Assembly (NCBI GenBank): GCA_963703955.1
Contig: CAVPGK010000011.1
Location: 224,001-288,000 of the forward strand
Reading direction: 5' to 3'
DNA length: 64,000 bases
DNA from: Nitrospirota bacterium
GTDB taxonomy: Bacteria; Nitrospirota; Nitrospiria; Nitrospirales; Nitrospiraceae
Below the pieces are notes generated by a model. It was not told the DNA's origin and searched no databases. It saw nothing but the letters and a program-made list of their open reading frames with translations. Shown here piece by piece: positions 7,066-44,412 of this stretch; position 1 is the stretch's first letter; every line of letters begins with the position of its first letter. The translations under genes and the position numbers were made by a program.

Positions 7066-7614
7066 TCATTGGCTCTCCCTCTCCATCGGCATGCCCATTG
7101 ACTCGTGGGAATCCTCTCGATCCATGCCGCCCATCCGCCCGCGCGCGCCCATGGGACCATGCGGGCCGACCATGACCGCCAGCGAAGCTCCGCTCGTACT
7201 GAATGATGGTCCAAATCTCTTCATCCGACAGCACGTACCGAATCCAATCATGCCGGTAGCGGGTGATCCGTTCTTGATGACCCAGAAGATTTCTCCTTCG
7301 GTCCGATGCCGCCAGAACCCATGATGTCGGAAATCCCGCGGCGAGGGGTCCAAGCCCATAGCGGCCGCACCATCGCCTCGTCCGCTCGCTCCATGACAGT
7401 TCGCGCACGTGCCTTTGCCCTGATAGAGGGCTTTGCCTTTTTCGACGATCTCGGATGACTCCGGCAAGGGACTGATTAAGGCGCGGGCCTCCTCGATCCG
7501 ATCAGGGGGCACCCTGGGCGCCATCGGGTGGCGTTCAGCGGCAACCGATGAAGAGGCTGATTCCAATACAAGCGCGAACAGTGCGACAGTCGCATGACCA
7601 CGTATGGTTCTCAT
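7066..7614 (-). pseudogene. Monoheme cytochrome c, paralog of 9308-9904, with two apparent frameshifts
   Basis: CANCH, PRDFRHHGFWRHRTEGEIFWVIKNG; the segment LSDEEIWTIIQYERSF lies in another frame (shifts near 7236 and 7170), then a Gly/Met-rich tail. Confidence 0.75.
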
Positions 7615-7624
7615 CGAAAAGGTC

Positions 7625-7870
7625 CTATGAGGTCGAGCCGACATGGATGGCGACTTTCGGGGGAACCACCAAAGACTGATGCACCGTGCATCCATGTCAA
7701 CTTTCAGCAACTTCTCTTGGTGAGATGGCGCGAGGTCTGTCGGAAGGTGAAGCACAGCTCCACCGCTCCCACCCGATGGGGCTGTTCGGCCATTGTCCAG
7801 CCAACGTCGATCGTGAAACCCGCGGTCGGAATCTGATGCCTGACGGAATAGCCTCTGACTAAGAACCGAC
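7625..7870 (-). pseudogene. OsmC family remnant (5'-truncated, frameshifted)
   Basis: RHQIPTAGFTIDVGWTMAEQPHRVGAV / VLHLPTDLAPSHQEKLLKV / HGCTVHQSLVVPPKV across three frames closely match the C-terminal half of OsmC at 15465-15881. Confidence 0.8.
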
Positions 7871-7985
7871 ACCCTAGCTCGGTCTGTTGTCTCACACGGT
7901 TGCAGCCGGAGGGCCACAACCGCCCGCCCTTTCCGAGACCTTCTCAGGAGGATGATGCATCAAGGAGCCCTGCCCACTCCATGCT

Positions 7986-8549
7986 TCACGAGTGGTCGTC
8001 CTCCGAGTCTGCCCCCTCTGCCGCTCGCACATGGGCCTTGCACGGCTCGGAAGACAGAGGGACTCGCGGTTCGTTCTCTTCCCACTTTCCTGGCCTGGCG
8101 CCGACGGCCTTCAGCAGGCACTCAGCCGTGGCTAGCAATTCCTTGAGCCGACGCCCTGGTTTCGCGCCGAAGCGCTCTCGATCGAAGATCGGCACCTGCA
8201 GGCAGACCTCAGCGCGCCGTCGCCGTTCCGGCGAATAGATCACCCGAGGAACCGGCGGATCTGGATATTCGCACGGCTTGAGAAGATCAAGCGATTGGAA
8301 GAAGACTCGGCAGAGCCGCTGGAGATCCCGCACGATTTCCCGATGCTCCTCGTCATCGCCCGTCGGCAGGTGGTGCGGGTCCTGAAACCCCGCATAGAGA
8401 TTCAACTGAAACCCGATCTGGGCCATCACGCCGGTCCCGTCCATCACGTAAAACGGATCGTGATCGAAGCAGACCTTTCGCATGGCGATCATCTCGCGCA
8501 GTGACGCTTCGTTCAGGAAGGCGCCGTCCACATTCAGCGGAATTGTCAT
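7986..8549 (-). CDS. Hypothetical protein
   Basis: 187-aa ORF with RBS gggag, co-oriented in the operon. Confidence 0.65.
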   Translation of the reverse strand: MTIPLNVDGAFLNEASLREMIAMRKVCFDHDPFYVMDGTGVMAQIGFQLNLYAGFQDPHHLPTGDDEEHREIVRDLQRLCRVFFQSLDLLKPCEYPDPPVPRVIYSPERRRRAEVCLQVPIFDRERFGAKPGRRLKELLATAECLLKAVGARPGKWEENEPRVPLSSEPCKAHVRAAEGADSEDDHS

Positions 8550-8562
8550 CGCCGATCTCCCG

Positions 8563-9057
8563 TCAAAGATTCTTCGCAAGCTTATACTCGAGGTGACACG
8601 CGACGCAGGCCTTCAATACGTTGTCGAGCTTCGGAAGGATCTGCTTGAAGTCCTTCGTCGGCATCACGCGCGCCAACCCTTCCGCCGCCTCATGATGGAC
8701 CATGGCCAAGTCGTGATAGGACGGCGGAAAGTCCTCCGGCTTCTGCCGCAACATGGCCTGTCGGTGCATGAAGAAACCCAAGTGCGTCTCGGTCAATCGT
8801 TGGGCCCTCTCGAAATCCTCCCGACCCAAGGCAGCCACGATCTGCTGCACGGATTCCAAGTGCTGAAGCATGACGGCCCGATGCTCTGTTCTGCTCTCGG
8901 GCGCCAACGGGATTTGCGCTCTGGTGTCGGGTAAGGGAACGGCTCTGGGGAGCCCTTGACCGGAACGGCCGGTTCCTTCCGCGCACCCGTATGCAATGGA
9001 ACCCGCGAGCGCGAGCGACAGGACACCTAAAACCGCCCCCCTGATCCCTTTCCTCAC
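8563..9057 (-). CDS. Class II (c'-type) cytochrome c, possible lipoprotein
   Basis: C-terminal CVACH after a helical region; N-terminal hydrophobic segment ending IAYGC; start uncertain (9057 GTG or 9078). Confidence 0.8.
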   Translation of the reverse strand: MRKGIRGAVLGVLSLALAGSIAYGCAEGTGRSGQGLPRAVPLPDTRAQIPLAPESRTEHRAVMLQHLESVQQIVAALGREDFERAQRLTETHLGFFMHRQAMLRQKPEDFPPSYHDLAMVHHEAAEGLARVMPTKDFKQILPKLDNVLKACVACHLEYKLAKNL

Positions 9058-9067
9058 GATTCCCTCG

Positions 9068-9277
9068 TCATGATGCACGGGCAGTCCCGCAGGTCTTCGT
9101 GCCCGTGACTCGGAAAACCAATTCCCCGTGCAAGCTGAGCGGCATCCCGCTTTCGATGTCCAGCCGATTTTCGGCGCGAGGTTGACTCGTTTCAGCAGAC
9201 ACCAGCAAGGTTCCCGACGTCCAGAGGAACATCCAGCACAACCAGATCCCAGCCAATAGCTTCGCGATGTCCTTCAT
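9068..9277 (-). CDS. Small secreted hypothetical protein (possibly a gene fragment)
   Basis: Signal-peptide-like N-terminus; fills the gap between co-oriented genes. Confidence 0.4.
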   Translation of the reverse strand: MKDIAKLLAGIWLCWMFLWTSGTLLVSAETSQPRAENRLDIESGMPLSLHGELVFRVTGTKTCGTARAS

Positions 9278-9307
9278 CCGATCACCGAGTGGTAATCATG
9301 CCAAGAC

Positions 9308-9904
9308 CTACCGTGTGGCTTCAGGCTTGTCGCAGCACTCGCCTTCGCCTCGACCCATCCCGCCCCTCGCACCATGTGACCCCATCTCACCCATTTCGCT
9401 GCGTGGTGTCATACGGCCCATTCCCTCTCGGGGACCCATTCCACGGCCTGGGCCGCTGTCACCGCCGAAACTGCGCTCGTATTGAATGATCGCCCAGATT
9501 TCATCGTCCGTAAGCATGCCGCCGAACGGAATCATCGCCGTGCCGGCGATGCCATGCTTGATCACCCAGAAAATCTCGCCCTCTGTCCGGTGCCGCCATA
9601 ACCCGTGATGATGAAAATTGCGCGGTGAGGGATCGAGTCCGACCGCTGCTGGACCGTTGCCCATGCCGTCTTTGCCATGGCAGTTGAAACATGTTCCTTT
9701 CCCGCTGTAGAGCGCCTTACCCTTCTCGATGATGTCAGGCGAGTCCACCAGCGGGCTCTTCAAGGCGCGTGCTTCCTCCAGTTTGTCGGTGGGCACCCGC
9801 GGCGGCATCACATGACGCTCCGCCCCGGACAATATGCCAGCGCTGCCGAGCGCAAGCGCACCGACCAGGGCTCCAACCACGACCTGCCATGCGTCGCTTT
9901 TCAT
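9308..9904 (-). CDS. Periplasmic monoheme cytochrome c with Gly/Met-rich tail
   Basis: Signal peptide, CFNCH, PRNF...EIFWVIKHG...AMIPF; ATGA overlap with the upstream gene. Confidence 0.9.
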   Translation of the reverse strand: MKSDAWQVVVGALVGALALGSAGILSGAERHVMPPRVPTDKLEEARALKSPLVDSPDIIEKGKALYSGKGTCFNCHGKDGMGNGPAAVGLDPSPRNFHHHGLWRHRTEGEIFWVIKHGIAGTAMIPFGGMLTDDEIWAIIQYERSFGGDSGPGRGMGPREGMGRMTPRSEMGEMGSHGARGGMGRGEGECCDKPEATR

Positions 9905-10515
9905 CTGATCGCCTGGAGCCAGGCCCGGATATCCGCAATGTCTTGTGCGCTTAGCGCAGCCTCCCAGGGCGGCATGGCGCCACGACCGTGCAGCACGGTG
10001 TCCCAGAACCGGCTCTCGTCGCCCAGGATCGGATTGCCGGCCAGCTTGAGACCCATGCCGCCGCTGGCGCCGCCGCCATGGCACGCCTGACAATTGTGCA
10101 CGTACAGGCCTTCGCCGCGACCCGCCACGCCGGAGGGATGGCCGCCTGCCGCAGCCGCTTCCACCCGCCGTGGCTCCGCCACGGCCCCCGTGTCCCTGAC
10201 CAGCTCCTGATCCGGCGCAGTCGGATGGTAGAGAGCAGACAAGTAACTTACCAGTAGCACCGCCTCCTCCGGCGAGACGTCGGCCCCCCAGTGAATCATC
10301 TTTTGGATCGTTGCCTCCCAGCGATCCCGGTCCAACCGCTGTTGACTGATGAGGTCTGTGCTATGGCAAACGGCGCAGCGGGCCAGGAGCAGGCCTTTGG
10401 CCCTGAGCGCGAGCTTTGCACGATCCTGGCTCGCGTCCTCGGCGTGCCCGATCGCCCACGCCGCGAACACGACCACGCTCACGAACACTACGCGGACTCC
10501 GTCCATTCGTCTCAT
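9901..10515 (-). CDS. Diheme cytochrome c, probable electron acceptor of the sulfite oxidase (SorB-like N domain)
   Basis: CAVCHSTDLISQQRL..W...I.KM..WGA plus a second CQACH domain; ATGA coupling to the Mo enzyme. Confidence 0.85.
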   Translation of the reverse strand: MRRMDGVRVVFVSVVVFAAWAIGHAEDASQDRAKLALRAKGLLLARCAVCHSTDLISQQRLDRDRWEATIQKMIHWGADVSPEEAVLLVSYLSALYHPTAPDQELVRDTGAVAEPRRVEAAAAGGHPSGVAGRGEGLYVHNCQACHGGGASGGMGLKLAGNPILGDESRFWDTVLHGRGAMPPWEAALSAQDIADIRAWLQAIR

Positions 10516-11699
10516 GCCGTCACAGTCACCATCGCGCGGTCCCAGCCGTTCCAGAGAAAGCCGCCCGGATTCCACGGAGACCGTTCGGGCTGCGTGTACC
10601 CCCGGTCATCCGTCGCGCGGCACAGCAGCACATAAGATCCGGGACGCATCGCGCGCCAGTCATATTTCCAGATTCGCCAGGCATAGGGGACATCGTCCCC
10701 CGTCAACCCGGCCCGGGACCAGGTCCGCCCTTCGTCGACCGACACCTCCACTGAGACAATCCGCGCTTCCCCCGTCCACGCGACCCCCTGCACCACGATG
10801 CTGCCGTCCACCGTGTCGCCGTCACGAGGACTCGTGATGAGAGACTTCACGATCATCGTTTCGATGGGTCGCAGGTCCATAGGGTCCACCTGCTCGCCGG
10901 GCTGGACGGGTCGAACCGGATGACGATACGCCGTCTGCATGTAATAGCCGGGAGGCTCTTGGTCGCTGGTCGTCAGATCAGTGAGCCACTTGACGCAGGC
11001 ATCTGCCATCCAGCCCGGCGCGATCAGTCGGAGGGGCGCGCCGTGTAACAGCGGGAGCGGCTCTCCGTTCATCCCAGAGGCCAGGATCGTATCGGGGTGC
11101 AGCGCCTTCTCGAGTGGAATGCTCCGGAGAAAGATTGGGGTGCTGGGATGAACCGGCCGATCCGCGCCGAGCAGATGGAGATGCTTCGCTTTAGTCTGTA
11201 TGCCGGCTTTCGCCAGCACATCGCGCAGCCGCACGCCCGTCCAGAGTGCGTTGCCCACCGCCCCCTTCCGCCACTGAATCCCTCCGGCGCGCGGCTGATA
11301 GAAGGCACGGCCGTTGCCGCTGCATTGCACGACGGCCGTGACGGATACTTCTTCGAATTGTTTGAGATCAAGCAGACTCAAACTGAGCGCACGGTCCACC
11401 AGCCCCCCCACGCTCAGTTTCCAGTGCGCCGGATCGATCCGCTCTAAGGGAGGCGGCCCGAAATGGCTGCGGACGAAAAAGCTGTCGTTCGGGGTGATCC
11501 ACGACGTGAAAGCTTCGACCGGCGTTTCCGCATCGTAGGGACGGCTGACTCTGGGGATCAGCTTGTCGACCACCTCGGCTCTTTCGGCCTGCCCACGCCC
11601 CAGAGAGAGCACCGTGACGGCATAGGCCAGCCCGCCGGCAGCCCATTGCATGAATCGCCGGCGCGAGACGACCCTGTCGTCCTCGCCATCCATGGTCAC
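10512..11699 (-). CDS. Sulfite oxidase family molybdoenzyme (SorA/SoxC-like), Tat exported
   Basis: SRRRFM Tat motif, FFVRSH, QCSGNGR Moco cysteine, HGAPLRLIAPGW..VKWL, C-terminal dimerisation domain (WNPGGFLWN). Confidence 0.92.
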   Translation of the reverse strand: MTMDGEDDRVVSRRRFMQWAAGGLAYAVTVLSLGRGQAERAEVVDKLIPRVSRPYDAETPVEAFTSWITPNDSFFVRSHFGPPPLERIDPAHWKLSVGGLVDRALSLSLLDLKQFEEVSVTAVVQCSGNGRAFYQPRAGGIQWRKGAVGNALWTGVRLRDVLAKAGIQTKAKHLHLLGADRPVHPSTPIFLRSIPLEKALHPDTILASGMNGEPLPLLHGAPLRLIAPGWMADACVKWLTDLTTSDQEPPGYYMQTAYRHPVRPVQPGEQVDPMDLRPIETMIVKSLITSPRDGDTVDGSIVVQGVAWTGEARIVSVEVSVDEGRTWSRAGLTGDDVPYAWRIWKYDWRAMRPGSYVLLCRATDDRGYTQPERSPWNPGGFLWNGWDRAMVTVTA

Positions 11700-13105
11700 T
11701 TGGCGAGTGTCCGGAGATAGTGAATCACCTGCCACACTTCGTCCTCGGACAATCCGGCAAACGGCATCATGCCGGTGCCGGGTGAGCCGTTCTTGATGAC
11801 CCAGAACAATTGGCCATCCTGAATCTCTCTCATCGTCGCACCGCAAGTAAAATTTCGCGGAGGCGGGACTAACGCCGCCCCGATCGGACCGCTACCGTCT
11901 CCTCGCTGTCCGTGACAATTCATACAGGCCAGCGGCTTTGCCGTTTCCATGAAGAGCGTCTTGCCCGCTTGCACATGAGCAGGGGAGGTTGGTAAGGGGT
12001 TTGTCCGGTTCAAGAAATCCGCAGGAGCTTGCTGGGTCGTCCGCGGTTGCGGGCAGACACCGAGGGCGCCGCCAGCTTGGCCCACCGTCGCTTCAGCGAC
12101 ATCTGCACCTTTGAAGGTCTGTCTCAAATAGGCAATGACGTCCGCGACGCCTTGCTGCCCGATCGTCAACCCCCAATAGGGCATGCTGGTGGATTTTCCG
12201 ACCGCGCGCCCGCCATGATTGACCACATTATAAAGATATTCCATCGGCAGCTTGTCGAACGCCATATTGGCGTGCACCGCCGGTTTGGGCTCGAGACCTG
12301 ACGCGGCCGGTCCATCGCCTCTGCCGCTGGCTCCATGGCATTGCGAACAGTATTGCTTGTAGAGCAGCTTGCCCCGATCAACGCTCACATTTTGAAATTC
12401 CTTGCTCGTCCACGGTTCGTAATATTTGAAATCCTTCACGCCCTGCACGGCCAGGAATCCGATGACAGCCCGCAACTGGGGGTCGGTGGCATCCGCCAGG
12501 AACTCCCCACTGTGTGGCGTGAAATCCTGCGGATTCTGCCCGAAGCGGAAGAGCCAGTCCGTGGTGTACCGGCGCCCGGATTCCACCAGGGAGGCACTCT
12601 GCGGCCCGCCGATGACCCTGCCGTTTTCCTCAATGACGTGGCAGCCGATGCAGGCATGGGCTTTATAGGCCTGCCGGCCGAACTCAACTTCGATGGCGCT
12701 TACCTTCGAGACATCGAAGGCTCCTATCCTTACGCGAGGATCCTTGTAATGCTGCTCAAAATAGTCGGCGATGCCTTGGGCCTCCGATGCAGAGACGATT
12801 GGATGTTCGGTCGGCTCCTGGGAAAGATCCCAGCGATACCCTTTCGGGTAGATACGATGTTCTTTGCCCGTCAACCACCCGATCAGCCACGCGCGTTGAT
12901 ATTTACTCCCGGCCCACATGAGATCCGGTGCCTTGAGGTTGAACCGCGACTCCGGAGTGCCTTCAAAGCGATGGCAGGAGGCGCACGTATTCTGGATAAC
13001 CTGTTTCGTCCCCTGCTCATCGCTGCCGAGCAGCATATGTGGGACAGTCACGAGCCATATCGCGAGACCAACAAAGGCACCGATCGCAACCCGTCTCTTC
13101 AACAT
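11696..13105 (-). CDS. Periplasmic tetraheme (multi-domain class I) cytochrome c
   Basis: Signal peptide; CASCH, CIGCH, CSQCH, CMNCH. Confidence 0.9.
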   Translation of the reverse strand: MLKRRVAIGAFVGLAIWLVTVPHMLLGSDEQGTKQVIQNTCASCHRFEGTPESRFNLKAPDLMWAGSKYQRAWLIGWLTGKEHRIYPKGYRWDLSQEPTEHPIVSASEAQGIADYFEQHYKDPRVRIGAFDVSKVSAIEVEFGRQAYKAHACIGCHVIEENGRVIGGPQSASLVESGRRYTTDWLFRFGQNPQDFTPHSGEFLADATDPQLRAVIGFLAVQGVKDFKYYEPWTSKEFQNVSVDRGKLLYKQYCSQCHGASGRGDGPAASGLEPKPAVHANMAFDKLPMEYLYNVVNHGGRAVGKSTSMPYWGLTIGQQGVADVIAYLRQTFKGADVAEATVGQAGGALGVCPQPRTTQQAPADFLNRTNPLPTSPAHVQAGKTLFMETAKPLACMNCHGQRGDGSGPIGAALVPPPRNFTCGATMREIQDGQLFWVIKNGSPGTGMMPFAGLSEDEVWQVIHYLRTLAK

Positions 13106-13213
13106 GAGCTCCTCCTGATTCGCTGATCCGTCGCGGCTCGAAAGCTTGCCACCGCAGTCATATCGGGACGACCCGTATGCGAGACATCGGGTGGATCGTA
13201 TCTCCGTGGTCGC

Positions 13214-14215
13214 TCAAAACCGATACTGTACCCCCAGCGAGACGATTGTGTCGTTGAAGTCCCGCGAAACGTCCGTCGAGGAACGCTGCGTACGCTGGAA
13301 GCTGAGGGTGGCATCCGACGCGTGGGTCAGTGCATACTTCAACTCGGCCAGCCCTTGGTTGGTGAGGTCCTGACGGCCCATATGTGTATCCCCGACCACC
13401 TCACTCGTGAAGGTCTTGCGCAAGTGAAGGTAGACAAGATTCAGTGCAAGCCGCTCAAGGAATCGCACTTCCGCGCCGAACGAGACGAGATTGAGGTAGT
13501 AGGACACATCGTCCTTGATTTCAGGTTGCTCTCGCCCATCAGCCAACCCACGTTCATAGAGGTAGGCAAGCGTGAACGTGATCCAGGAAGCCGGTCGATA
13601 GTCGGCGCGCGGACCGATCGTATAGAAGGTGGTATCGCGTTCGGCGAAGGCCTCGTTATAGAGTCGAACCCCGTAACGGCCAATGAACGTACCGCTCCAG
13701 TTTTGGTTGAATCGTCGCTGGAGTTCAAGTCTCCAGTGATGCGACGTCACCCGTTCCTCTTGAATCGAATTCGTTCCACTCTGGTGCTCGATGTTGGGCC
13801 CCAGAAAGACATTCGGCACATATCGATACCGCAGCAACACCGAGGTATCGGGATTCAGCCACTGCCGGTCCTGAATCAGGTAGTCGCCATGATTGAAGAT
13901 GGGCTTGTCGGTATAAATGAACCCGTGCGCCTCGACAGACATTTCGTTCTTTCCGAGCCAGGGAGAGGATGATTTGATGACCTCCAAGCTCGGCTCCCAT
14001 ACCACATCAGAAGGTTTTCCGAGCGGAACGATCGTGGGTTGGGACGGGTCCTCGTTAAGCGCCAGGCGTCGAGCCGATGAAAACTGAAAGACATCGGTCG
14101 TATAACTCACCCTCTGCTCAGCGACTGCTGACCATTCGGCGCGAGCAGGCCAAGGCCACGCGATCAGAAAAACAGTGGCCGCCATGGCCCATCCTGCCCC
14201 TCGCGTCGCCCCCAT
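13214..14215 (-). CDS. Putative outer-membrane beta-barrel protein
   Basis: Signal peptide (ARA/EW), amphipathic Tyr-rich strands, C-terminal GVQYRF. Confidence 0.75.
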   Translation of the reverse strand: MGATRGAGWAMAATVFLIAWPWPARAEWSAVAEQRVSYTTDVFQFSSARRLALNEDPSQPTIVPLGKPSDVVWEPSLEVIKSSSPWLGKNEMSVEAHGFIYTDKPIFNHGDYLIQDRQWLNPDTSVLLRYRYVPNVFLGPNIEHQSGTNSIQEERVTSHHWRLELQRRFNQNWSGTFIGRYGVRLYNEAFAERDTTFYTIGPRADYRPASWITFTLAYLYERGLADGREQPEIKDDVSYYLNLVSFGAEVRFLERLALNLVYLHLRKTFTSEVVGDTHMGRQDLTNQGLAELKYALTHASDATLSFQRTQRSSTDVSRDFNDTIVSLGVQYRF

Positions 14216-14221
14216 CGTTCA

Positions 14222-14659
14222 TTATTGCCCGAACGCCCGCACATACAAGACTAGGTGCCACGCTTCTTCCTCGGTCAAGATCAACGGAATGAATGAAGCC
14301 ATATCGGTGCCAGGACTTCCGTTCTTCAGAATCCACATCAATTCGCCATCCGTCCTGACCTGTTGCCAGACTTTGTTGGTGAAATCCCTCGGAAGCCTGC
14401 CCCGCAAGCCGGGGATATCGCTCAACCCTTTACCATCGCGGCCGTGACAGGTCGCGCAGAAAGCCTTGCCATGGAACAGCGCCTTCCCCTTCTCGATGTT
14501 CTCTGGACTCGGCGGGATGGGATTGACCCACGTTCTTGCAACCGCTATCTGATCCGTAGGCACACGCGGGATCAGCACCTCGGCATCCGCGCCATAGGAG
14601 GGACACCGAAACCAGCCCACCAACCCGGCCATAATGAACAGCGTCGCTCGTACCATCAT
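14222..14659 (-). CDS. Monoheme cytochrome c
   Basis: CATCH, PRDF..TDGELMWILKNGSPGTDM; same family as 9308-9904. Confidence 0.88.
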   Translation of the reverse strand: MMVRATLFIMAGLVGWFRCPSYGADAEVLIPRVPTDQIAVARTWVNPIPPSPENIEKGKALFHGKAFCATCHGRDGKGLSDIPGLRGRLPRDFTNKVWQQVRTDGELMWILKNGSPGTDMASFIPLILTEEEAWHLVLYVRAFGQ

Positions 14660-14767
14660 CACGTCGAATGCAACGTTGGGTAGCAAAAGCAATGGGCGGG
14701 CGCAAGACCCGCACCCATTGCCTCCCGTTCGATCCTATTCTTTACTGCTCGTTTCTCCCTCTCACCC

Positions 14768-15289
14768 CTATTTCTCTGCGTGCCCGGGAAATTGGTGCCC
14801 AAGCGACTGAGGGAAAGAGACCGAGCCATCGGGGAACTCCAGACCCTTTTGCCAGAGGTGGTAGATGACGCCGTCAGTTTTGGACGCCGCGTCGGCGATT
14901 TCTTTGGCCTTGTCAGCGGGCTCGAGGACCTGCACACGTCCGGTCGCGATCTCAACCTTGTGATCGTGGAAATACCGATGCCACTGAATGGGAGAGAGTT
15001 TCCTGGTAAGGTCCTTTGCCACGAAGTATTCAATTCCGATCAGCGCCGCCTTAGGATCAGTGGATTCGAAGAGCAGGCACTGGAGAATCTTATCTGAAAT
15101 CCCCTTGCAATAATGGTGGTACGGCCCGCCAACCGTGCCATCTGGATGAAGGTGTGGGGCCTGCACATGGATGTCATACCCGGTTGCCGGAGAAGCCGGC
15201 TCAGCGCCAACCGCCGGCATGACCATGAATGCCCACATCACGAAACTCACGATACCGAGTAGCCCACTACGATGAAGAGTCGATTCCAT
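14768..15289 (-). CDS. Secreted DUF1264 (OBAP-like) protein
   Basis: HHYCK...QCLLFES...LIGIEY...HDH..E motifs; signal peptide; RBS ggagg. Confidence 0.8.
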   Translation of the reverse strand: MESTLHRSGLLGIVSFVMWAFMVMPAVGAEPASPATGYDIHVQAPHLHPDGTVGGPYHHYCKGISDKILQCLLFESTDPKAALIGIEYFVAKDLTRKLSPIQWHRYFHDHKVEIATGRVQVLEPADKAKEIADAASKTDGVIYHLWQKGLEFPDGSVSFPQSLGHQFPGHAEK

Positions 15290-15464
15290 GTCTGCCTCCT
15301 AATTGATAGAGTGAGGTTCACGATGATGAGCTTTCGAGCTGGTTCTGCACCGCTCCGCTCACCATTCTGACTCTTAGAGACACGTCGCATCGTAAGGATT
15401 CAAGTACTGTCCGACCTCGAAGTCCAAAGGAGCGCATCGGCGAGTTGAGACCTCTGCATTGGGG

Positions 15465-15881
15465 TCACGAACGTGGCTCCACACCCTTTCCTGCAAATAC
15501 CGACAGATCCACTTCGGGTGGGACGGCCAGTGTCTGATGGACGGTACAGCCGTTGGCCACTTTCAACAGCCGGTCCTTCAATTCCTGTGTCAGCTCGGAA
15601 GGCAGATGAACAACCACTTTTACCGCACCGACGCGATGGGGCTGCTCAGCCATGGACCACTCCGCGTCAATTGTTAGCCCCTCGCTGGGAATCTTGTGGC
15701 GCGCGCAGTAACGCCCCACGAAATACCCGACGCAACTCGCCAGCGACCCGACGAAGAGTTCCACCGGGCTCATCCCCGTATCGGCGCCACCTTCATCCGT
15801 CGGTTGATCCGTCACCACGGTGTGCGCACCGCTGGTGACGTCAAAGCGGGTCCCGCCTCGAAATGCAACTGTGAGATTCAT
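15465..15881 (-). CDS. OsmC family protein
   Basis: TDQP..GG.DTGMSPVELFVGSLASC and the second Cys in GCTVHQTL. Confidence 0.9.
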   Translation of the reverse strand: MNLTVAFRGGTRFDVTSGAHTVVTDQPTDEGGADTGMSPVELFVGSLASCVGYFVGRYCARHKIPSEGLTIDAEWSMAEQPHRVGAVKVVVHLPSELTQELKDRLLKVANGCTVHQTLAVPPEVDLSVFAGKGVEPRS

Positions 15882-15942
15882 GGTGGCACCTTCCGCGTTA
15901 TCAGTTTGTTCACTTTCCTCCACGACTGGATGCCTAATTCGT

Positions 15943-16063
15943 GCGCTTCAGGCCTTAACATGCAACTGGTCAGATCGTTCAGTTCTTTGCCGTTCAAAAG
16001 ATCCGGGCCAACTGTGTCGCCTCACCATGAATCCGATGATACCCGGCACAGCCTCCTTTGGCT
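15943..16063 (-). pseudogene. Decayed cytochrome c fragment
   Basis: Minus strand reads AKGGCAGYHRIHGE, then after a frameshift DTVGPDLLNGKELNDLTSCML; CxxCH appears mutated to CxxYH. Confidence 0.5.
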
Positions 16064-16240
16064 CCTGCGCGAGGCTCCTAAGTGGCCTCCTAAAAGTCTT
16101 GTCGCATTAATCACGATCAAGCACACAGCGATGCTGATTGTAATGAAGGCGCCAATCTTGGCAGTGGCCTCAGGGGAAGTGAAGAACAGGCCCGGCTTCT
16201 CACATACCCCCTGACGAAACCGGCAGCTTTTTTCAAGCTC

Positions 16241-16603
16241 CTATCCAACAGGTTTGAACGGAGCCTCCATCCGAATATAAGAAAGGACATCTCGGATGTC
16301 CTGCTCGCTCAAGACGTCACGAAACCCGTGCATCGGCGTAAACATGACCCCATGCGCGATGGTGATGAACATCTCCCAATCGCTCTTCGTGCGTGAGCTC
16401 AAGGACTGCAGGTCAGCCGGGGGGACGGTCAAGAATTTTGCCTCCGGCCCTCTCCCATCCAGCTTCTGTCCATGGCACCGCAGACAGAGTTGCTCATAAA
16501 CAGCCTGCCCGTGCTTTGGGTTGCCGGAGCGATTCTGAGCGATTGCCAAGGAAGCGCAGAGAATGACAAACAACGCAACTGCGACGGAAATATGTCGTGT
16601 CAT
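16241..16603 (-). CDS. Periplasmic monoheme cytochrome c
   Basis: Signal peptide, CLRCH, TPMHGF; paralog of 855-1217. Confidence 0.9.
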   Translation of the reverse strand: MTRHISVAVALFVILCASLAIAQNRSGNPKHGQAVYEQLCLRCHGQKLDGRGPEAKFLTVPPADLQSLSSRTKSDWEMFITIAHGVMFTPMHGFRDVLSEQDIRDVLSYIRMEAPFKPVG

Positions 16604-16727
16604 GGACTCGCCTCCATGAGGACTAGCTCAACCCATTCGCTTTCGTTGGTAGGCAAGAATCTGTCGGCCATCCACCTCCGACTCGATCCCTACTCTCTCG
16701 TATGAATTCGCTTGCGATCCTTAGCGC

Positions 16728-17975
16728 TCAAGCTTGCTGTTCCAGCTTCGCGATTCCGAGCGCTTTCAGAATCGCTTTCTCGTAATAGGGCTCGCTGACG
16801 CCTCGTTTCATCTTATGCAGAAAATATTTTTCCAGGCCGATTTTGGCGAGGTGCACCCACTTTCCCTTCTTCGCCCACGTAACATTCCGTGGAGCCATTT
16901 GCGGAAGCGCGACGAAGGCCACTCCTGTGTCCCCCATATCAGCCAGGCAAATGGCATTCCAGGTCGCCGTGTCGCGCTTCGGGTTGTTCTCAATATCGGC
17001 CTTGATGTTGTGCACCGTGGCCGAGACCATTGATTCGATCATGTACCCCGTCTTGGGCGCGCCCGTCGGAATCGGCGTTTGCTCCACCGGCGGGATAGCC
17101 ACGCAGACTCCCACCGCGTAAATGTTCTTGTATTTCGGATTGGCTTGGTAGGAGTCAATATTCACAAACCCCTTGGGATTGCAGAGCCCCGGCGTTCCGG
17201 CGACTGCGTCCACGCCCGCAAAGGGCGGGATAAACATGGAGTAGCGAAAGGAGATATCCTGCCCGTCCTCCAGCATCAACTTGCCGGGCTGCACTTCTTT
17301 GATCGCGACGTTCGTGAAGGGTTTGATCGAGTGCTCGGCGAATTCATCCTCCATGAGCCGGCGCGATTTGCCGACGCCCGCCAGTCCCATGTGGCCGATG
17401 TAGGGCTCCGGCGTCACGAAATAGATCGGCACTTTGCGCCGCAGCTTTCTCTTGCGTAGATCGGCATCCAAAATGAAGGCCATCTCATACGCCGGCCCAA
17501 AGCAGGAGGCGCCTTGTGCCGCGCCGACCACGATGGGGCCCGGATCCTTTAAGAACGCTTGATAGGCGCCCCATGCTTGTTCCGCGTGATCCAGCGTGCA
17601 GACCGACTGCGTGTACCCGCTTGGCCCTAAGCCGCCCACGGCAGGGAAGTTCAATTTTGGCCCTGTCGCGATAATAAGGTAATCGTAAGGCACCTCGCCT
17701 TTCGCGGTGATAACGCGGTTTTGTTCCGGTTCGATCCGTTCTGCTGCCGTGTGAATGAACCCGACGCCCTTCTTTTCGAAGACAGGCCCCAAAGGGAAGC
17801 TGATATCTTTTCGCTTCCTCCACCCCACAGCTACCCATGGATTGGACGGCACGAAGTGAAAATAGTCCACGTTCGAGATCACGGTGACCGAATGTTTCTT
17901 GTCCAACATCGCCCGGCATTCATAGGCTGCGGGGAGGCCTCCGATCGACGCGCCGATGATCGCAATGTGTGCCAT
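16728..17975 (-). CDS. sqr: Sulfide:quinone oxidoreductase (type I-like)
   Basis: FAD-binding N-terminus, FVPSNPW, SVCT, GASCFGPAYE, PKTGYMIESM, AICLADMGD, KWVHLAKIGLEKYF. Confidence 0.93.
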   Translation of the reverse strand: MAHIAIIGASIGGLPAAYECRAMLDKKHSVTVISNVDYFHFVPSNPWVAVGWRKRKDISFPLGPVFEKKGVGFIHTAAERIEPEQNRVITAKGEVPYDYLIIATGPKLNFPAVGGLGPSGYTQSVCTLDHAEQAWGAYQAFLKDPGPIVVGAAQGASCFGPAYEMAFILDADLRKRKLRRKVPIYFVTPEPYIGHMGLAGVGKSRRLMEDEFAEHSIKPFTNVAIKEVQPGKLMLEDGQDISFRYSMFIPPFAGVDAVAGTPGLCNPKGFVNIDSYQANPKYKNIYAVGVCVAIPPVEQTPIPTGAPKTGYMIESMVSATVHNIKADIENNPKRDTATWNAICLADMGDTGVAFVALPQMAPRNVTWAKKGKWVHLAKIGLEKYFLHKMKRGVSEPYYEKAILKALGIAKLEQQA

Positions 17976-18055
17976 TAGTCCTCCAGTACTGAGTTGAACG
18001 AACAAGAGAAACGGCCATGCGGCGATGAGCTCAGTTCTCAGTCTGATATATTGCT

Positions 18056-18080
18056 GGCTGAAAGCTGACGGCTGACCGCT
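18056..18080. repeat. Short 7-mer tandem repeats (GCTGAnn)
   Basis: ggctgaaa gctgacg gctgaccgct; related units recur at 18336-18380 on the other side of the DUF2892 gene. Confidence 0.45.
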
Positions 18081-18084
18081 CTCT

Positions 18085-18303
18085 CTATGCCTTCCCGGTT
18101 GGCTTCATTTCACACGTGTTGATACCCAACACCTTCCACGCCGGGCAAAAGCCGACGGCGCCGGTCAGGAGCGCGATTGCTCCGACTCCGACCGCCAGCG
18201 CCGCTTGCCAGCCCGTGAGTCCCGCAAACGACCCCAAGAACAGGAAAATCAGGCCCACGACAATTCGAATGCCGCGTTCCATTGCTCCTACATTGCATCG
18301 CAT
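18085..18303 (-). CDS. DUF2892 (YgaP-like) membrane protein
   Basis: NVGAMERGIRIVVG...TGAVGFCPAWKVLGINTC. Confidence 0.9.
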   Translation of the reverse strand: MRCNVGAMERGIRIVVGLIFLFLGSFAGLTGWQAALAVGVGAIALLTGAVGFCPAWKVLGINTCEMKPTGKA

Positions 18304-18483: not shown

Positions 18484-18735
18484 TCAGTCGACTCGCGAGT
18501 GATCTGGACGGTATCGTCCTGCCGACAATCGATAGAGATCATGGCACGTCGTGCATCGGCTGGTGATGCTGGACAGACGATTCGAGACCTGTGGCGGACT
18601 CCACCCTGAACTACCGCATCCGCGAGCGCGTCGAAGTCGCGGTGAACCGACATCCCCATCTGTTTTAAGGCCAAGGGAAGCTTGACCATGATGGCCGGGC
18701 TCACGTCGGCAGCCATGCCCTTGCCTGCTGCGCGC
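18484..18735 (-). pseudogene. Class II cytochrome c C-terminal remnant
   Basis: KLPLALKQMGMSVHRDFDALADAV, frameshift, then LSSITSRCTTCHDLYRL; N-terminus missing. Confidence 0.7.
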
Positions 18736-19188
18736 CCACGCAAACAGCATGGTCGTGCCATAAGCTTTACCTCGAACGACTCATTACCGGCTTATCCGGG
18801 CTTCCGGGCACCGATGATGGGATCTGCGTCGTTCAGCTCGATACCTCTGTTCCCTGTGCGATTAACTCGCCACTCAGCCTAACGCGCCGAAGTGCTTGAA
18901 GTCACAACAGAGCCTCGCGGAGGATGAGCGGGGCCTTCCAACGGATTGGGGAGAAAGTCCACAGTGTCGATGTGGACCTCAGCGCAGGATGCCACATACA
19001 AGACACCGGACAGCATGCAAGGCAACGGCCGGGGTGGTTCGATCCTCCAGCCTGATGTCCAGCCTCCAAGGTTCCCTTGTCTTCCCCAAAAGCAGAGGTC
19101 ATAGAACTCCCGACCAAGAGGACGGCCAACGCGGCGGCGATGACCATCCCTCGCTCACGTCATAACCCATGGACACGAGGATGAACGT

Positions 19189-20933
19189 TCACGAATGGTA
19201 GGCTTCGCGAAAGTGTCGGCCGACCATCCGATAGGCATTGTGGAGATACTGAGTGACCATGCGATGAGAATTGAAGAACGCGCTGTTGACGGCGATTGCA
19301 TGCCGCATGATGTCGATAAAGCGGTCGCGGTTCTTGTAAAAACACGGGAGCACTGTATCACCGAGTTTCTCGTACAGCGCCTCTGCATGGCAGGCGTCCA
19401 TTCCAGATTTCGGTTCGAGACAGGCGTCGATCCGATCACCGATCGACCAGCCGGTGACGCCTTCGAGATGGCCCTCGATCCACCATCCGTCCAAGATACT
19501 GAGACTGGGCACGCCGTTGAGCGCCGCTTTCATGCCGCTGGTTCCGGAGGCCTCCATCGGCGGCAACGGGGTATTAAGCCAAACATCAACGCCTGCGCAC
19601 AGCAGCTTGGCCAGCGCCATGTCGTAATTGAGGAGATACGCGATGGCGATACGACCCCGGAGCGCATCACGCATCTCGGTGATACGACGGATAACGTTCT
19701 TGCCGTCCTGGTCCTGAGGATGCGCCTTGCCCGCAAAGACCAATTGAAACGGTCCCGACCGTTCGGCGATGGCCTTCAGTCGTTCGATATCATGAAACAG
19801 GAGGTCCCCCGCTTATAGGCCGTGGCGCGCCGAGCAAAGCCGATGGTCATGACCTTCCAGTCAAACCCGGCATTCGCCTCGTGATTCACGTAATCAATGA
19901 GGACACGTTTGGCCGCCAGATGGGCATCCCAGATTTCCGATCCGGGAATGCTGATCGCGTACCGCAGCGACAACGAGTCGCGCCGCCAATCCGGCAGGTG
20001 CCGGTCATAGAGCGTCTGGAACGATGGCGCCGTCCACGTAACTGCGTGCACGCCGTTGGTGATCGAGTGGATCGGGTAGCCGGGAAACATGCTTTGCGAC
20101 ACCTCGCCATGCCTCATGGCGACGCCATTGATGTACCGAGAAGCGCGCAGCGCCAAGTCCGTCATATTCAATACGGTATTCTGGCCACAGGCTTTGAGCA
20201 GTCGCCAGCGCTGCTCCCCCAGCACCCGCTTGACCAAATCACCCGGAAACTGGTCATGGCCGGCCGGCACCGGCGTGTGAGTCGTAAAGACGCACCGGTC
20301 CCGAATGCCCTCCATAACCTCCGGCGTGACCGCCACGTCGGGCGCACCGGTTCCCAATCGCTCTTCGAGCAGCGCGACGACGAGCAAGGCGGCATGTCCC
20401 TCGTTCATATGAAACCACGGGACGTCCTTATATCCCAGGGCACCCAGCACGCGAACGCCCCCTATGCCGAGCACGCTCTCCTGGCAGAATCGATAAGACT
20501 GGTCTCCGCCGTAGAGCGCGTCGGTGAGCGTCCGGTCCCACGGCGTGTTCTCCTGCAGGTCCGTGTCCAGAAGATACACCGGGATTTCAAATCCCGAGAC
20601 GCCGCGGATGCGATAGCACCAGGCGCGGATGTGCACCGTCCGACCGTCCAGTTCGATGGTCGCCCGGGGCTCCAGAGGTTCGAGAAAATCCTGCGGGACC
20701 CACACCACCGGCTCCTCCGACTGCCACCCGTTCGCGTCCAGTCGCTGATAAAAGTAGCCGCGACGATGCAGGAGCGTCACCGCCACCATCGGGACTTCCA
20801 GGTCGGCGGCCGAGCGGATCGTATCGCCGGCCAGCACGCCGAGCCCGCCCGCGTACGTGGGCACTGAGGGCTCAAGCCCGATCTCCATGGAGAAGTAGGC
20901 AACCAGGGGAGTCTTAATTGAGGAAGCATTCAT
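19189..20933 (-). pseudogene. glgP: Alpha-glucan (glycogen) phosphorylase split by a 1-bp deletion in a G run at ~19806 (probable sequencing error)
   Basis: YFSMEIG..YAGGLGVLAGD, HMNEGH, FTTHTPVPAGHD, FARRATAYKR, then FAGKAHP and EASGTSGMKAALNG in the next frame; adding one G restores KRGDLLFHD. Confidence 0.9.
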
Positions 20934-31711: not shown

Positions 31712-31900
31712 TTACTCCTGAACCCCCAGCTTTCTCAACAAGGCCATCATTGGGCACCACCTGGTGAACGCAGATTGGATCAAATTAGCCGCCACAAATG
31801 CCGCCAGGTAGTACCAGTATGGATGGAGGGTCGTGCCAAGAACGAGAGCCAACAGAACGAACCCCCCGGCGATCAGTCGTAACCATTCATGGAGTTTCAT
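31712..31900 (-). CDS. DUF2892 (YgaP-like) membrane protein
   Basis: LRLIAGGFVL...ANLIQSAFTRWCPMMALLRKLG; RBS aaggagg. Confidence 0.9.
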   Translation of the reverse strand: MKLHEWLRLIAGGFVLLALVLGTTLHPYWYYLAAFVAANLIQSAFTRWCPMMALLRKLGVQE

Positions 31901-39610: not shown

Positions 39611-41401
39611 TCATACACTACTTGAAGGATGATAGGGTGGGAGCGTGGTCAAGCGCGGATCCTCCACAGGCCCGCCCGTCGTAAAATGATAGAGCGATTG
39701 AAAGGCTGTGTCCGTGAAGCCGAACACCTGATGCACCGGGTCATCAAAGAAACAGCCGATCCCTGTCGCCCGAAGCTCAGCAGCCTCAGCCTCAAGATAG
39801 AGAACCTGGCCGAGTACCCCGGTCTCCCAGAACAGCCGCCGGTAAAACCACGCTCCATACCGGCGCAAGCTCGGCTCGAATTCCGCAATCATTCCCAAGG
39901 AGAAGGCGCTGTCGCCGGCGATCTCTTGATGACAGCTCACCTGGGCCGCAAGCCGCCGTGCATCCCCCACCTCCAGTAGAAACAGCGGGAGATCATCGGG
40001 ACAGGCCGGCGGTTTGGCCCAGACAAAATGCTCATGCATGGCATGACGCAACACATCGCATTTCGTCATGTCACGAACGAGCACGTAGAGCCCTGGCTCC
40101 AACCCTTCTACTCGATGGACAAACAGGGCAAGGTGGATCACCGGATCCCATGGAACCGCATCCCAGGGCATGGGGCGACTCAACAGCGGCCGTTCATGTC
40201 GCGGCAGGACCCGAGACAACATCCCGAAAAAATCCCCGGCTGAGAGACCTGTCTTACCGTCGAAGCCCAGCGCGCTCCGCCGCTGACGAATGATCCGTCC
40301 TGCGACCGGTTTTTCAGGCGAGGCGCCTACGCGATCACTCGCGAGGTCGCGAGTAGCGTCGCTCGGGTTCCCCCGCACACCCAGTTCAACCGCCTCCCGA
40401 TCCGTCGATGGCTTCCACGAAGCCGCCGCGACGACATCAATGATCTCCCACGGATCAGGCGCATCTCGGCTGAGCCGGTTAGCTTTGCCATACCAGGTCG
40501 CGTCGCTGAGGCTCTGAACCGCTTCAGCATGCAGCGACAGCGGGAGCGAACGGAGCTTCTCCACCTTCTCACCTACTGAAACAGAGTGCGACGGCCATAC
40601 CATGGCCACACAGTCGGGGTGCTCCGATTCAGCACCAACAAAGTCTTCGTTGCGGTTGAGCCCCAACAGGTTTGCGAGCAGATCATCTCCGACATCATCC
40701 AGTACAACCATCTGCCATCCCAACGTCGCGGCAGCTATGCGAGCCGTGGCGATGGCATGCCCAACGTCGTGCTGACAATAGCGATAGCCTCGCTCTCCAT
40801 ACTTCCAGGATTCCCGCCAGTGAATCGACGTCAACGCGAACAAGAACGCCTGCGGTGGAAACGGGCTCATGAGGTCACTGAACCAACTTTGTCTATGATC
40901 CGTCCGCCGTTCCAGGGCGTGCTCTTTGGGAGCGTAATGATACAGTCCCGGCGTCGGTCCCAATCCCACAAGCCCGTCGATGAGCAGATACCCCTCAGTG
41001 GGATGCAGATTGCCGCTGGATGGATTGCTTCGGAGGGCCCAGCGCGCGCCTCCCGCTTCTTTCCAGGCCGAGAGCGCAAGGGCATACTCGAAAAAGCGTG
41101 AGATCGTTCGAACCGTTACGGGTTGGCTCGTGATCGACCCCGGACAATAGAGATCATCATACGGCGGCGAAAGCGGGTCGTCTTCGAGCCGCAAGATCGG
41201 CAACGAGATGAGTGGGGCGCCTTCGAATCGTCGAAAGGGATTCGGCTGATTGGCCCAGTCCATGTACCCCAACGATCGGGCATACCGATTGAAATGATGC
41301 TTCGTCTGCTGGTGGTAGCCGATCACCTGCAGGATCGGATCTGGTCCTACCTTCTCCGGCGCTTGCATTATCACTCGGTCTGATCTCTCGCGTGCCCTCA
41401 T
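39611..41401 (-). CDS. SagB/ThcOx family tandem nitroreductase
   Basis: YHQQTKH, LRSNPSSGNLHPTEGY, WRESWKYGERGYRYCQHDVGHA, RQRRSA, TGIGCFFDD. Confidence 0.9.
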   Translation of the reverse strand: MRARERSDRVIMQAPEKVGPDPILQVIGYHQQTKHHFNRYARSLGYMDWANQPNPFRRFEGAPLISLPILRLEDDPLSPPYDDLYCPGSITSQPVTVRTISRFFEYALALSAWKEAGGARWALRSNPSSGNLHPTEGYLLIDGLVGLGPTPGLYHYAPKEHALERRTDHRQSWFSDLMSPFPPQAFLFALTSIHWRESWKYGERGYRYCQHDVGHAIATARIAAATLGWQMVVLDDVGDDLLANLLGLNRNEDFVGAESEHPDCVAMVWPSHSVSVGEKVEKLRSLPLSLHAEAVQSLSDATWYGKANRLSRDAPDPWEIIDVVAAASWKPSTDREAVELGVRGNPSDATRDLASDRVGASPEKPVAGRIIRQRRSALGFDGKTGLSAGDFFGMLSRVLPRHERPLLSRPMPWDAVPWDPVIHLALFVHRVEGLEPGLYVLVRDMTKCDVLRHAMHEHFVWAKPPACPDDLPLFLLEVGDARRLAAQVSCHQEIAGDSAFSLGMIAEFEPSLRRYGAWFYRRLFWETGVLGQVLYLEAEAAELRATGIGCFFDDPVHQVFGFTDTAFQSLYHFTTGGPVEDPRLTTLPPYHPSSSV

Positions 41402-43917: not shown

Positions 43918-44412
43918 TTACATGGCTGCCACGATGTCCTTTTTCATCGGCCCAAGAACACTCAACAGCTCATTCTGTTCGCGTGAGGGGACCTTAAACT
44001 TGTTCAACGTCGCCACCAGGTCACCGACCAAGGCATCAAACTCTTGGCTGGTAATACCCATGCCGGCATGGGTCGTCTTCATATCCCGACCGGTATAGGT
44101 GCACGGGCCGCCGGACGCTGAGCAGATCTGCTCAACTAGGAGAGTCTTTAATCTGGGAATATTGGCATTCGCAAACTTGCCATTGATACGGTTGTCGTTC
44201 GCGACGCGATTGACAAAGTCATCCACGACCGCCGTAATTGCTTCCTTCTTGCCCAGGCGGTCATAGAGTGACGTCGTCACAGCCTTGCCGGCTCCGCCGC
44301 CTGAGGCAGACATGGTACCCTCACTGGCACAGCCCGTTCCCAAGGCCAACAGACCGACGAAAGCCCATCCCCATATGTCTTGATGTCGCACACGCATAGT
44401 GCCCTCGTTCAT
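43918..44412 (-). CDS. glbN: Group I truncated hemoglobin with lipoprotein signal
   Basis: SLYDRLG..AITAVVDDF, GGPCTYTGRDMKTTHAGMGI; N-terminal LALGTGC lipobox. Confidence 0.9.
   Translation of the reverse strand: MNEGTMRVRHQDIWGWAFVGLLALGTGCASEGTMSASGGGAGKAVTTSLYDRLGKKEAITAVVDDFVNRVANDNRINGKFANANIPRLKTLLVEQICSASGGPCTYTGRDMKTTHAGMGITSQEFDALVGDLVATLNKFKVPSREQNELLSVLGPMKKDIVAAM

Follow-up and report, generated by a model that had tools for sequence, protein, structure and literature searches.

A trimmed variant of a conserved Nitrospiraceae island carrying a type I-like sulfide:quinone oxidoreductase and a SorA-like molybdoenzyme

The 64,000-nt stretch of contig CAVPGK010000011.1 studied here (the window, in whose positions all plain coordinates are given) carries on its minus strand a cluster of genes for a sulfide:quinone oxidoreductase (SQR, gene sqr), a Tat-exported molybdoenzyme of the sulfite oxidase family (hereafter the Mo enzyme) and a series of c-type cytochromes. 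Judged by sequence comparison, this locus is a conserved island across Nitrospiraceae of which the window holds a trimmed variant; its gene content, gene order, conserved catalytic residues and family-wide linkage are matters of direct observation. We favour, with moderate confidence, the reading that the island likely serves to oxidise reduced sulfur by separate, parallel enzymes under low-oxygen, sulfidic conditions. SQR would oxidise sulfide to polysulfide and reduce quinone, and the SorA-like Mo enzyme, together with a SorB-like diheme cytochrome, would oxidise periplasmic sulfite and pass the electrons through a tetraheme and small cytochromes to a terminal oxidase. In relatives, a second bc complex encoded in the island would reoxidise the quinol delivered by SQR, TsdA would oxidise thiosulfate with electrons entering the same tetraheme, and transport of sulfur compounds through the membrane would fall to TauE or YeeE/YedE. 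SQR, TsdA and the SorA-like pair would constitute parallel entry points for sulfide, thiosulfate and sulfite, with no dedicated enzyme between sulfane sulfur and sulfite, these pools being joined by chemistry or by outside supply. Polysulfide is subject to autoxidation, and with sulfite it yields thiosulfate. The OsmC-like, DUF2892 and DsrE proteins may act as cysteine-based sinks or carriers shielding the cell from sulfane sulfur and polythionates, and DUF1264, its cytochrome and an outer-membrane barrel may form a cassette of their own, added to the island in certain lineages. A preliminary description of the locus had already seen in it a sulfide- and sulfite-directed module of a probable nitrifier, a view that the TauE, TsdA, DsrE and YeeE/YedE genes added by relatives bear out.

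Two predicted sulfur oxidases and their linkage across the family

Genes in the window were identified from a list of open reading frames (ORFs) with Pfam and NCBIfam family scans. The host genome (G000; labels in G, L, C and X denote genomes, stretches, contigs and read sets) measures 3.3 Mb and is 82% complete, which sets the scope of all genome-wide negatives reported below. Its single-copy sqr encodes a protein that matches solved structures over its full length (512 bits to 3sz0, the type I SQR of Acidithiobacillus ferrooxidans, 381 bits to 3hyv and 95 bits to the next family), and C126, C158 and C343 align to cysteines of the solved enzyme and are invariant in 17 out of 17 sequences. By this similarity and its three catalytic cysteines the protein is type I-like, and it is likely the sulfide oxidiser that these features predict. 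Across genera, SQR (81-93%) and the DsrE of the island (80-99%) are much more conserved than the Mo enzyme (53-80%), which suggests either strong constraint or recent spread of the two former proteins.

The Mo enzyme combines a PF00174 domain (186 bits) with a PF03404 dimerisation domain (59 bits) behind a Tat motif (SRRRF), and its best solved match is SorA in 2blf (263 bits), the SorAB of Starkeya novella. R75, H77, C124, R129 and Y256 align to SorA R55, H57, C104, R109 and Y236, which comprise the molybdenum-ligand cysteine and the sulfite-site residues of that enzyme; W141 aligns to SorA L121 and G377 to A358, so that a third arginine is missing in both. The active-site residues are kept in all 11 family orthologs aligned, and the paralogs L002 and L003 of the same genome lack both active-site arginines. 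These two and L004 make three more sulfite-oxidase-family genes in the host. Assignment to MsrP (YedY) is argued against by the dimerisation domain and by a score of 41 of 207. The diheme gene immediately follows the Mo gene in 81 of 82 genomes, and just two genomes have it without a Mo match; its CxxCH motifs and Lys-Met are invariant in 29 aligned sequences, and its first domain is SorB-like, reaching 46 of the 93 bits asked by the SorB model NF052246. The Mo enzyme is thus SorA-like in its predicted anatomy, without being filed as a SorA member, and together with the diheme it is likely a sulfite oxidase. Among 201 genomes of the phylum searched, its clade (at least 53% identity) was found in this family only; in family f9 a different enzyme, 37-46% alike, occurs in 22 of 44 genomes.

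The linkage of both genes was followed in 150 genomes of the family, taken as Nitrospiraceae, the same set being searched with ten proteins and the counts tallied by hand. Mo orthologs, defined by at least 53% identity, occur in 82 genomes (two partial, 80 full-length) and sqr orthologs, defined by at least 73%, in 53 (four partial or split), leaving uncounted four more genomes with only a 34-36% paralog. Both genes are present in 37 genomes, sqr alone in 16, the Mo gene alone in 45 and neither in 52. Where both occur they lie on different contigs in seven genomes and on one contig in 30, and in all 30 of the latter sqr lies upstream of the Mo gene on the same strand, at 3.8-44 kb and within 11 kb in 10 of them. 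An early impression gained from 11 loci, that no sqr lies within 10 kb, was overturned by these whole-genome searches. Single-contig genomes confirm that either gene can stand without the other, with only sqr in G113 and G141 and only the Mo gene in G039, G076, G115, G139 and G145. Of the synteny that the preliminary description had anticipated, the common orientation of sqr and the Mo gene is borne out, and the link to DUF1264 is not, since among the matches listed just 19 of 80 genomes have this gene 10 kb or less from the Mo gene. Since modules are gained and lost separately, it is unlikely that SQR and the Mo enzyme form an obligatory chain.

Modules of the island and competing explanations

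Pfam scans of hand-picked ORFs in seven islands of relatives (L006 and those of G001, G013, G021, G023, G036 and G054) revealed a Rieske protein with a cytochrome b-c fusion, TauE, DsrE, TsdA, YeeE/YedE, thioredoxin, Tll0287, Cu/Zn superoxide dismutase, hemerythrin, PPK2, 2-oxoacid oxidoreductase, Usp and a Crp/Fnr regulator, and in addition RND, ABC, Mla, phosphorylase, FtsH and acetate kinase genes. The accessory set of the window, previously regarded as unusual, turns out to be a reduced version of this family island. Among the matches listed, 26 of the 30 same-contig genomes have the cytochrome b-c fusion of the second bc complex in the interval from sqr to the Mo gene. Of the 53 sqr genomes, 30 have TauE downstream of that gene at a distance of no more than 6 kb, and in G013 TauE, osmC and DsrE follow sqr. 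TsdA (183 bits to 4wqc) was detected in 67 of the 150 genomes, 61 of which have it no more than 2 kb from osmC; for DsrE, detected in 83, the distance to osmC does not exceed 6 kb in 71; a YeeE/YedE pair adjoins TsdA in L006. Many of the genomes with TsdA homologs (e.g. L051:13012-13926) lack both sqr and the Mo enzyme. Two relatives carry a Tll0287-family heme protein in the island (L025:1499-2206 and L051:14175-14879); we presume a cyanobacterial link of this family to sqr, which a literature search did not confirm. A three-gene 2-oxoacid:ferredoxin oxidoreductase set stands directly downstream of the island at L006:12920-16221 and L051:2776-6016, and in G021 a BglII-type restriction endonuclease and a DNA methylase occupy its edge (L031:14261-15843).

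The 82% complete host genome yielded no hit for TauE, YeeE, DsrE, TsdA or the second bc complex, apart from a weaker cytochrome b match. The earlier statement that the window lacks persulfide dioxygenase, Sox and Dsr genes holds genome-wide as far as searched: SoxB (best 59 of 550) and DsrA remained below cut-off, and of four metallo-beta-lactamase-fold matches in the genome, all outside the window, the best fell far short of the Blh cut-off, the other three being untyped. Rhodanese hits in the genome lie outside the window, and neither persulfide dioxygenase nor rhodanese occurs in the window or among the hand-picked ORFs of the seven islands.

Several observations weigh against sulfur oxidation by parallel enzymes. 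The Mo enzyme scores below the NCBIfam SorA equivalog cut-off (325.7 of 600, with two orthologs at 313 and 325) as well as below those of SorT (246.5 of 570) and SoxC (210 of 420), and the diheme gave no match to solved SorB. The absence of TauE, TsdA and DsrE hits leaves this genome with no evident sulfite source, and the 150 genomes behind the hand-tallied counts are kin and many are fragmented. Matches to Fnr-type boxes number four, one of them at 16107-16120 upstream of osmC, and are equalled by 10 of 100 shuffles; the five window matches to Crp-type boxes all fall outside the cluster, and neither type of box clearly exceeds chance. Finally, so many island genes are unrelated to sulfur that their linkage may reflect a shared low-oxygen regulon.

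Carried further, this last point would make the island a general low-oxygen or redox-stress regulon, with SQR as a stand-alone detoxifier, a Mo enzyme acting on another substrate (e.g. an S- or N-oxide) or as a reductase, and adjacency explained by shared regulation. We regard this as unlikely, albeit in agreement with the many non-sulfur stress genes, with the 15-44 kb that separate sqr from the Mo gene in 20 of the 30 same-contig genomes, with the Mo gene lacking sqr in 45 of 82 genomes, and with a Mo enzyme below the SorA cut-off whose close homologs some public annotations label as YedYZ-type reductase. On the other hand, the full SorA active-site set with its dimerisation domain, the poor MsrP score, the almost constant SorB-like partner and the packing of TsdA and DsrE around the Mo gene all argue against this reading.

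A different alternative keeps the sulfur chemistry and joins it in series: DUF2892 would take sulfane sulfur from SQR, a three-cysteine OsmC (with DsrE in relatives) would oxidise it to sulfite with no persulfide dioxygenase involved, TauE would export the product and the SorA-like enzyme would convert it to sulfate. Such a relay, close to the link that the preliminary description had proposed for OsmC, DUF1264 and DUF2892, would find some backing in the distribution of osmC, which occurs in 106 of the 150 genomes, in 51 of the 53 with sqr, and which in 69 of the 80 full-length cases precedes the Mo gene by no more than 1.7 kb. The TauE-osmC-DsrE succession after sqr in G013, the lack of persulfide dioxygenase among the ORFs scanned in the seven islands and the clade-specific third cysteines of OsmC and DUF2892 are also in its favour. 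OsmC (PF02566, 54 bits against a cut-off of 27.5) has invariant C50 and C112, with C59 in all 17 clade members, and the three cysteines of DUF2892 (C3, C53 and C64) are invariant in 14 of 14 aligned sequences. However, osmC abuts the tetraheme gene in 17 genomes without a Mo ortholog, 14 of which also lack sqr and 16 of which have tsdA just upstream; the tetraheme itself is present in 97 of the 150 genomes, and 82 of the 106 genomes with osmC have it about 2.2 kb or less from that gene. From a list of 150 OsmC homologs the 27 longer ones were scanned; among these, two fusions to PIG-L and one to DUF302 were found and none to rhodanese, DsrE, TusA or another sulfur carrier; an Atlas search with OsmC retrieved OsmC clusters only. 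The classical OsmC peroxiredoxin model TIGR03562 was not matched at E 0.001, and TIGR03549 and NF041052 stayed below cut-off. The known chemistry of the OsmC family is reductive, and the host genome gave no TauE hit. A role of OsmC as a cytoplasmic sink for sulfane sulfur or polythionates would fit better than the relay, because the protein has no signal peptide, carries a cysteine pair plus a third cysteine and tracks the tsdA-tetraheme core more than it tracks SQR or the Mo enzyme.

The other two proposed links fare no better. DUF1264 is widespread (121 of the 150 genomes) and, as stated above, seldom near the Mo gene. Its His, Cys and Glu residues that are invariant in 80 aligned sequences may form a metal site. 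A second copy lies beside a cytochrome paralog at G000 C3:23877-24380, and genus g31 has tandem pairs. The DUF1264 model (pLDDT 82) gave no Foldseek match at E 0.001; the best fold lead, a PH domain (Z 4.4, root-mean-square deviation 3.0, 84 aligned), was rejected and counts neither as a functional lead nor as proof of a new fold. DUF2892, found in 102 of the 150 genomes, immediately precedes sqr in 18 of 53; elsewhere it mostly neighbours osmC or bc genes. In a study on Azospira, a DUF2892 gene rose about 10-fold during sulfide oxidation and its deletion left the rate of sulfide oxidation unchanged (PMC5358917), which also argues against the relay. All in all we find the relay quite improbable. 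The same holds for the wider proposal that many Nitrospira-family nitrite oxidisers are facultative sulfur chemolithotrophs, converting sulfide to sulfate via SQR, the bc complex, TsdA and a family-specific SorAB, with a DUF2892/three-cysteine OsmC/DsrE relay and without persulfide dioxygenase, Sox, Dsr or sHdr; we consider it very doubtful.

Layout of the window and its host genome

All 13 genes named in the preliminary description were found, on the minus strand throughout and in the order claimed (Table 1), and the translational coupling of the tetraheme, Mo, diheme and monoheme genes was also confirmed, with a 2-nt gap between the first two and ATGA overlaps at the Mo/diheme and diheme/monoheme junctions. 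The genes further upstream are spaced by 108-359 nt, except for the 6 nt between cytochrome and barrel, so that a single transcript for the locus is not established; promoter and terminator predictions in the window were at chance level. Four features had been missed: the 187-aa orphan, the 69-codon ORF, the decayed osmC copy and the frameshifted c'-type gene upstream. The orphan had no Pfam, NCBIfam or Atlas match and is unlike the single ORF compared. The extent given before, 7066..18303, stands as to its genes, and its lower end does not, because the last cytochrome changes frame near 7235 and 7066 is the stop of the shifted frame.

Table 1. Features of the island in the window, in the direction of transcription.
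Feature	Coordinates	Strand	Evidence
c'-type cytochrome gene in pieces (frame changes)	18484..18950 (upstream end approximate)	-	58% and 56% identity of the two pieces with L018:17386-17856
DUF2892 / YgaP-like two-helix membrane protein, 72 aa, three cysteines	18085..18303	-	PF11127, 71 bits
Sulfide:quinone oxidoreductase (sqr), type I-like, 415 aa	16728..17975	-	512 bits to solved SQR 3sz0
Monoheme cytochrome c, 120 aa	16241..16603	-	PF13442, one CxxCH
OsmC-like protein, 138 aa, no signal peptide, three conserved cysteines	15465..15881	-	PF02566
DUF1264 (OBAP family) protein, likely signal peptide, His/Cys-rich	14768..15289	-	PF06884, 64 bits; hydrophobic N-terminus
Monoheme cytochrome c, cytochrome 579-like, travels with DUF1264	14222..14659	-	NF033864, 102 bits (cut-off 280)
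Predicted outer-membrane beta-barrel	13214..14215	-	weak porin hits (PF10082, PF13505, TIGR03014), none reaching cut-off; Phe at C-terminus
Tetraheme cytochrome c, 469 aa, likely shared electron acceptor	11696..13105	-	4 CxxCH
Tat-exported sulfite-oxidase-family molybdoenzyme, SorA-like, 393 aa	10512..11693	-	PF00174 + PF03404; SRRRF twin-arginine motif
Diheme cytochrome c, SorB-like N-terminal domain	9901..10515	-	2 CxxCH; NF052246, 46 of 93 bits
Monoheme cytochrome c, cytochrome 579-like, Gly/Met-rich tail	9308..9904	-	NF033864, 117 of 280 bits
69-codon ORF, hydrophobic N-terminus; remnant or small gene	9068..9277	-	no match in 11 related loci
c'-type cytochrome, C-terminal CxxCH	8563..9057	-	PF01322, 22.6 bits, below cut-off; homologs in L006, L007, L011, L013, L014
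Orphan ORF, 187 aa	7986..8549	-	positive coding score; 13 nt after c'-type gene
Decayed second osmC copy, three frames	7640..7865	-	tblastn 42-63% in three pieces
Cytochrome 579-like gene whose frame changes near 7235, 72% to the paralog at 9308..9904	7066..7614	-	

The c'-type homolog in L018 lies upstream of DUF2892-sqr in G023. The cytochrome that follows sqr has close paralogs at 855-1217 and on contigs C16 and C13, and a paralog of the cytochrome that travels with DUF1264 adjoins the second DUF1264 copy on contig C3. GC content is 56-64% over the cluster and 54-61% in the rest of the window. Between 18900 and 31900 the window holds an RND operon headed by a second DUF2892 gene (31712-31900), HlyD, RbbA-like ABC genes, VIT1 and a split glycogen phosphorylase. 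Since genes like these sit inside the island in G001 and G054, the island probably reaches upstream to about 32 kb here. At the other end (23-1217) a gene for the gamma subunit of an alternative F1F0 ATPase precedes a cytochrome c gene whose product is 43% identical to the one after sqr; a SagB-type dehydrogenase domain protein (39611-41401) and a truncated globin (43918-44313) lie further off.

Changes of frame affect the last cytochrome, the upstream c'-type gene and the glycogen phosphorylase. Related contigs in read sets X1 and X3 carry one extra base at 7235, and, being about 90% alike, they do not represent the host strain; related contigs also show indels at 18751, 18788 and 18937, within the c'-type gene, and a near-identical contig has one extra base at 19803 in the split phosphorylase. 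Together with a split nxrA-like fragment elsewhere in the genome, these extra bases favour assembly indels over decay. An island decaying in this genome, its transport, bc, TsdA and DsrE genes lost, others broken and the remainder no longer a working unit, has little to recommend it: the three changes of frame, the decayed osmC copy and the mosaic descent of a locus whose nearest Mo relatives (77-80%) lack sqr and whose nearest sqr (93%) sits in a genome without the Mo gene are outweighed by 12 intact main genes with their catalytic residues kept and by the signs of assembly error just given. Contigs from the RNA run X6 are 97-100% alike on the DUF2892, sqr, barrel, tetraheme and Mo genes and one cytochrome gene, at depth 2-7; with no silent-stretch control and with DNA carry-over possible, they are not counted as evidence of expression.

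The nxrA-like fragment, at the start of contig C15 (L080), belongs to a split, Tat-signalled alpha subunit of the type II DMSO-reductase family, with a frame change at the contig end. No model named it, and we take it to be the N-terminal part of a Nitrospira-type NxrA. The search for amoA in the 82% complete genome found nothing, its positive control also matching nowhere. The host is likely a nitrite oxidiser of the Nitrospiraceae, as far as its genes tell. None of the sequencing runs searched held half of the stretch, and therefore no habitat is named; a plasmid search returned matches below 60% identity only.

Relation to previous reports and known systems

Members of the Nitrospira family count among the main bacteria that oxidise nitrite in soils, groundwater and treatment plants. 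Oxidation of reduced sulfur would let these nitrifiers detoxify it or gain energy from it. The island puts names to candidate enzymes and substrates (sulfide, thiosulfate and sulfite) and makes sulfur oxidation by Nitrospira directly testable, with tetrathionate as the predicted product where tsdA is present. Lineages that keep different modules offer natural comparisons and are predicted to differ in sulfide tolerance. If the parallel-enzyme reading is true, the second bc complex would be explained as the quinol outlet for SQR.

Parts of this gene complement have been reported before. In the text available to us, sqr and sorAB have been noted separately in Nitrospirales with their function left untested (bioRxiv 10.1101/138586, PMC12342949, PMC8115632), with no mention there of a linkage between sqr and sorAB, of TsdA, of a second bc complex or of OsmC. 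The same preprint text calls sorAB characteristic of canonical Nitrospira (bioRxiv 10.1101/138586), so that the Mo enzyme has probably been annotated previously. PMC12342949 describes SorAB as largely restricted to lineage IV; since the present clade occurs in 82 of 150 family genomes, that study probably counted another SorAB clade. tsdA is absent from the main text of that report, and its supplement could list tsdA or the Mo enzyme. Use of sulfide or sulfite by Nitrospira-type organisms is still untested according to the sections consulted of PMC12342949, PMC8115632 and PMC3578206. In the titles and abstract openings of the open literature, supplements and subscription papers being outside this scope, we met no description of the island. 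What we present are therefore known enzymes in an arrangement for which no description was found, the window being a reduced variant of it.

A counterpart in another nitrite oxidiser is the TsdA region of Ca. Nitrotoga, which in the part of the source consulted comprises tsdA, cytochromes, sulfur-compound transport and a Crp-family regulator and is proposed to serve in hypoxia (PMC9239080). The island shares these four elements with it; Ca. Nitrotoga belongs to another phylum, no sqr or SorA-like gene is named for the Ca. Nitrotoga region in that text, and the window itself lacks tsdA.

The Mo enzyme resembles that of SorAB (2blf) in Tat export, in its molybdenum and dimerisation domains, in the active-site residues, in the missing third arginine and in having a cytochrome c gene directly downstream. 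It departs from it in reaching 326 of 600 on the SorA model and in W141 at the position of SorA L121; moreover, its partner is a diheme in which a SorB-like domain is fused to a second cytochrome, and tetraheme and osmC genes are attached. SQR, for its part, is like the type I enzyme of 3sz0 and its relatives in the full-length 512-bit match and the three catalytic cysteines, whereas here it occurs in a family of nitrifiers, whose genomes conserve it at 81-93%, and is linked to a second bc complex and a SorA-like enzyme.

Among SQR-type systems, the SQR-persulfide dioxygenase-rhodanese pathway of heterotrophs and the staphylococcal cst operon provide the remaining comparison. As in these, sqr in relatives stands beside TauE and cysteine-rich small proteins. 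In contrast to them, the window and the seven islands scanned have neither persulfide dioxygenase nor rhodanese, the window also lacks TauE, and periplasmic TsdA and SorA-like enzymes appear instead.

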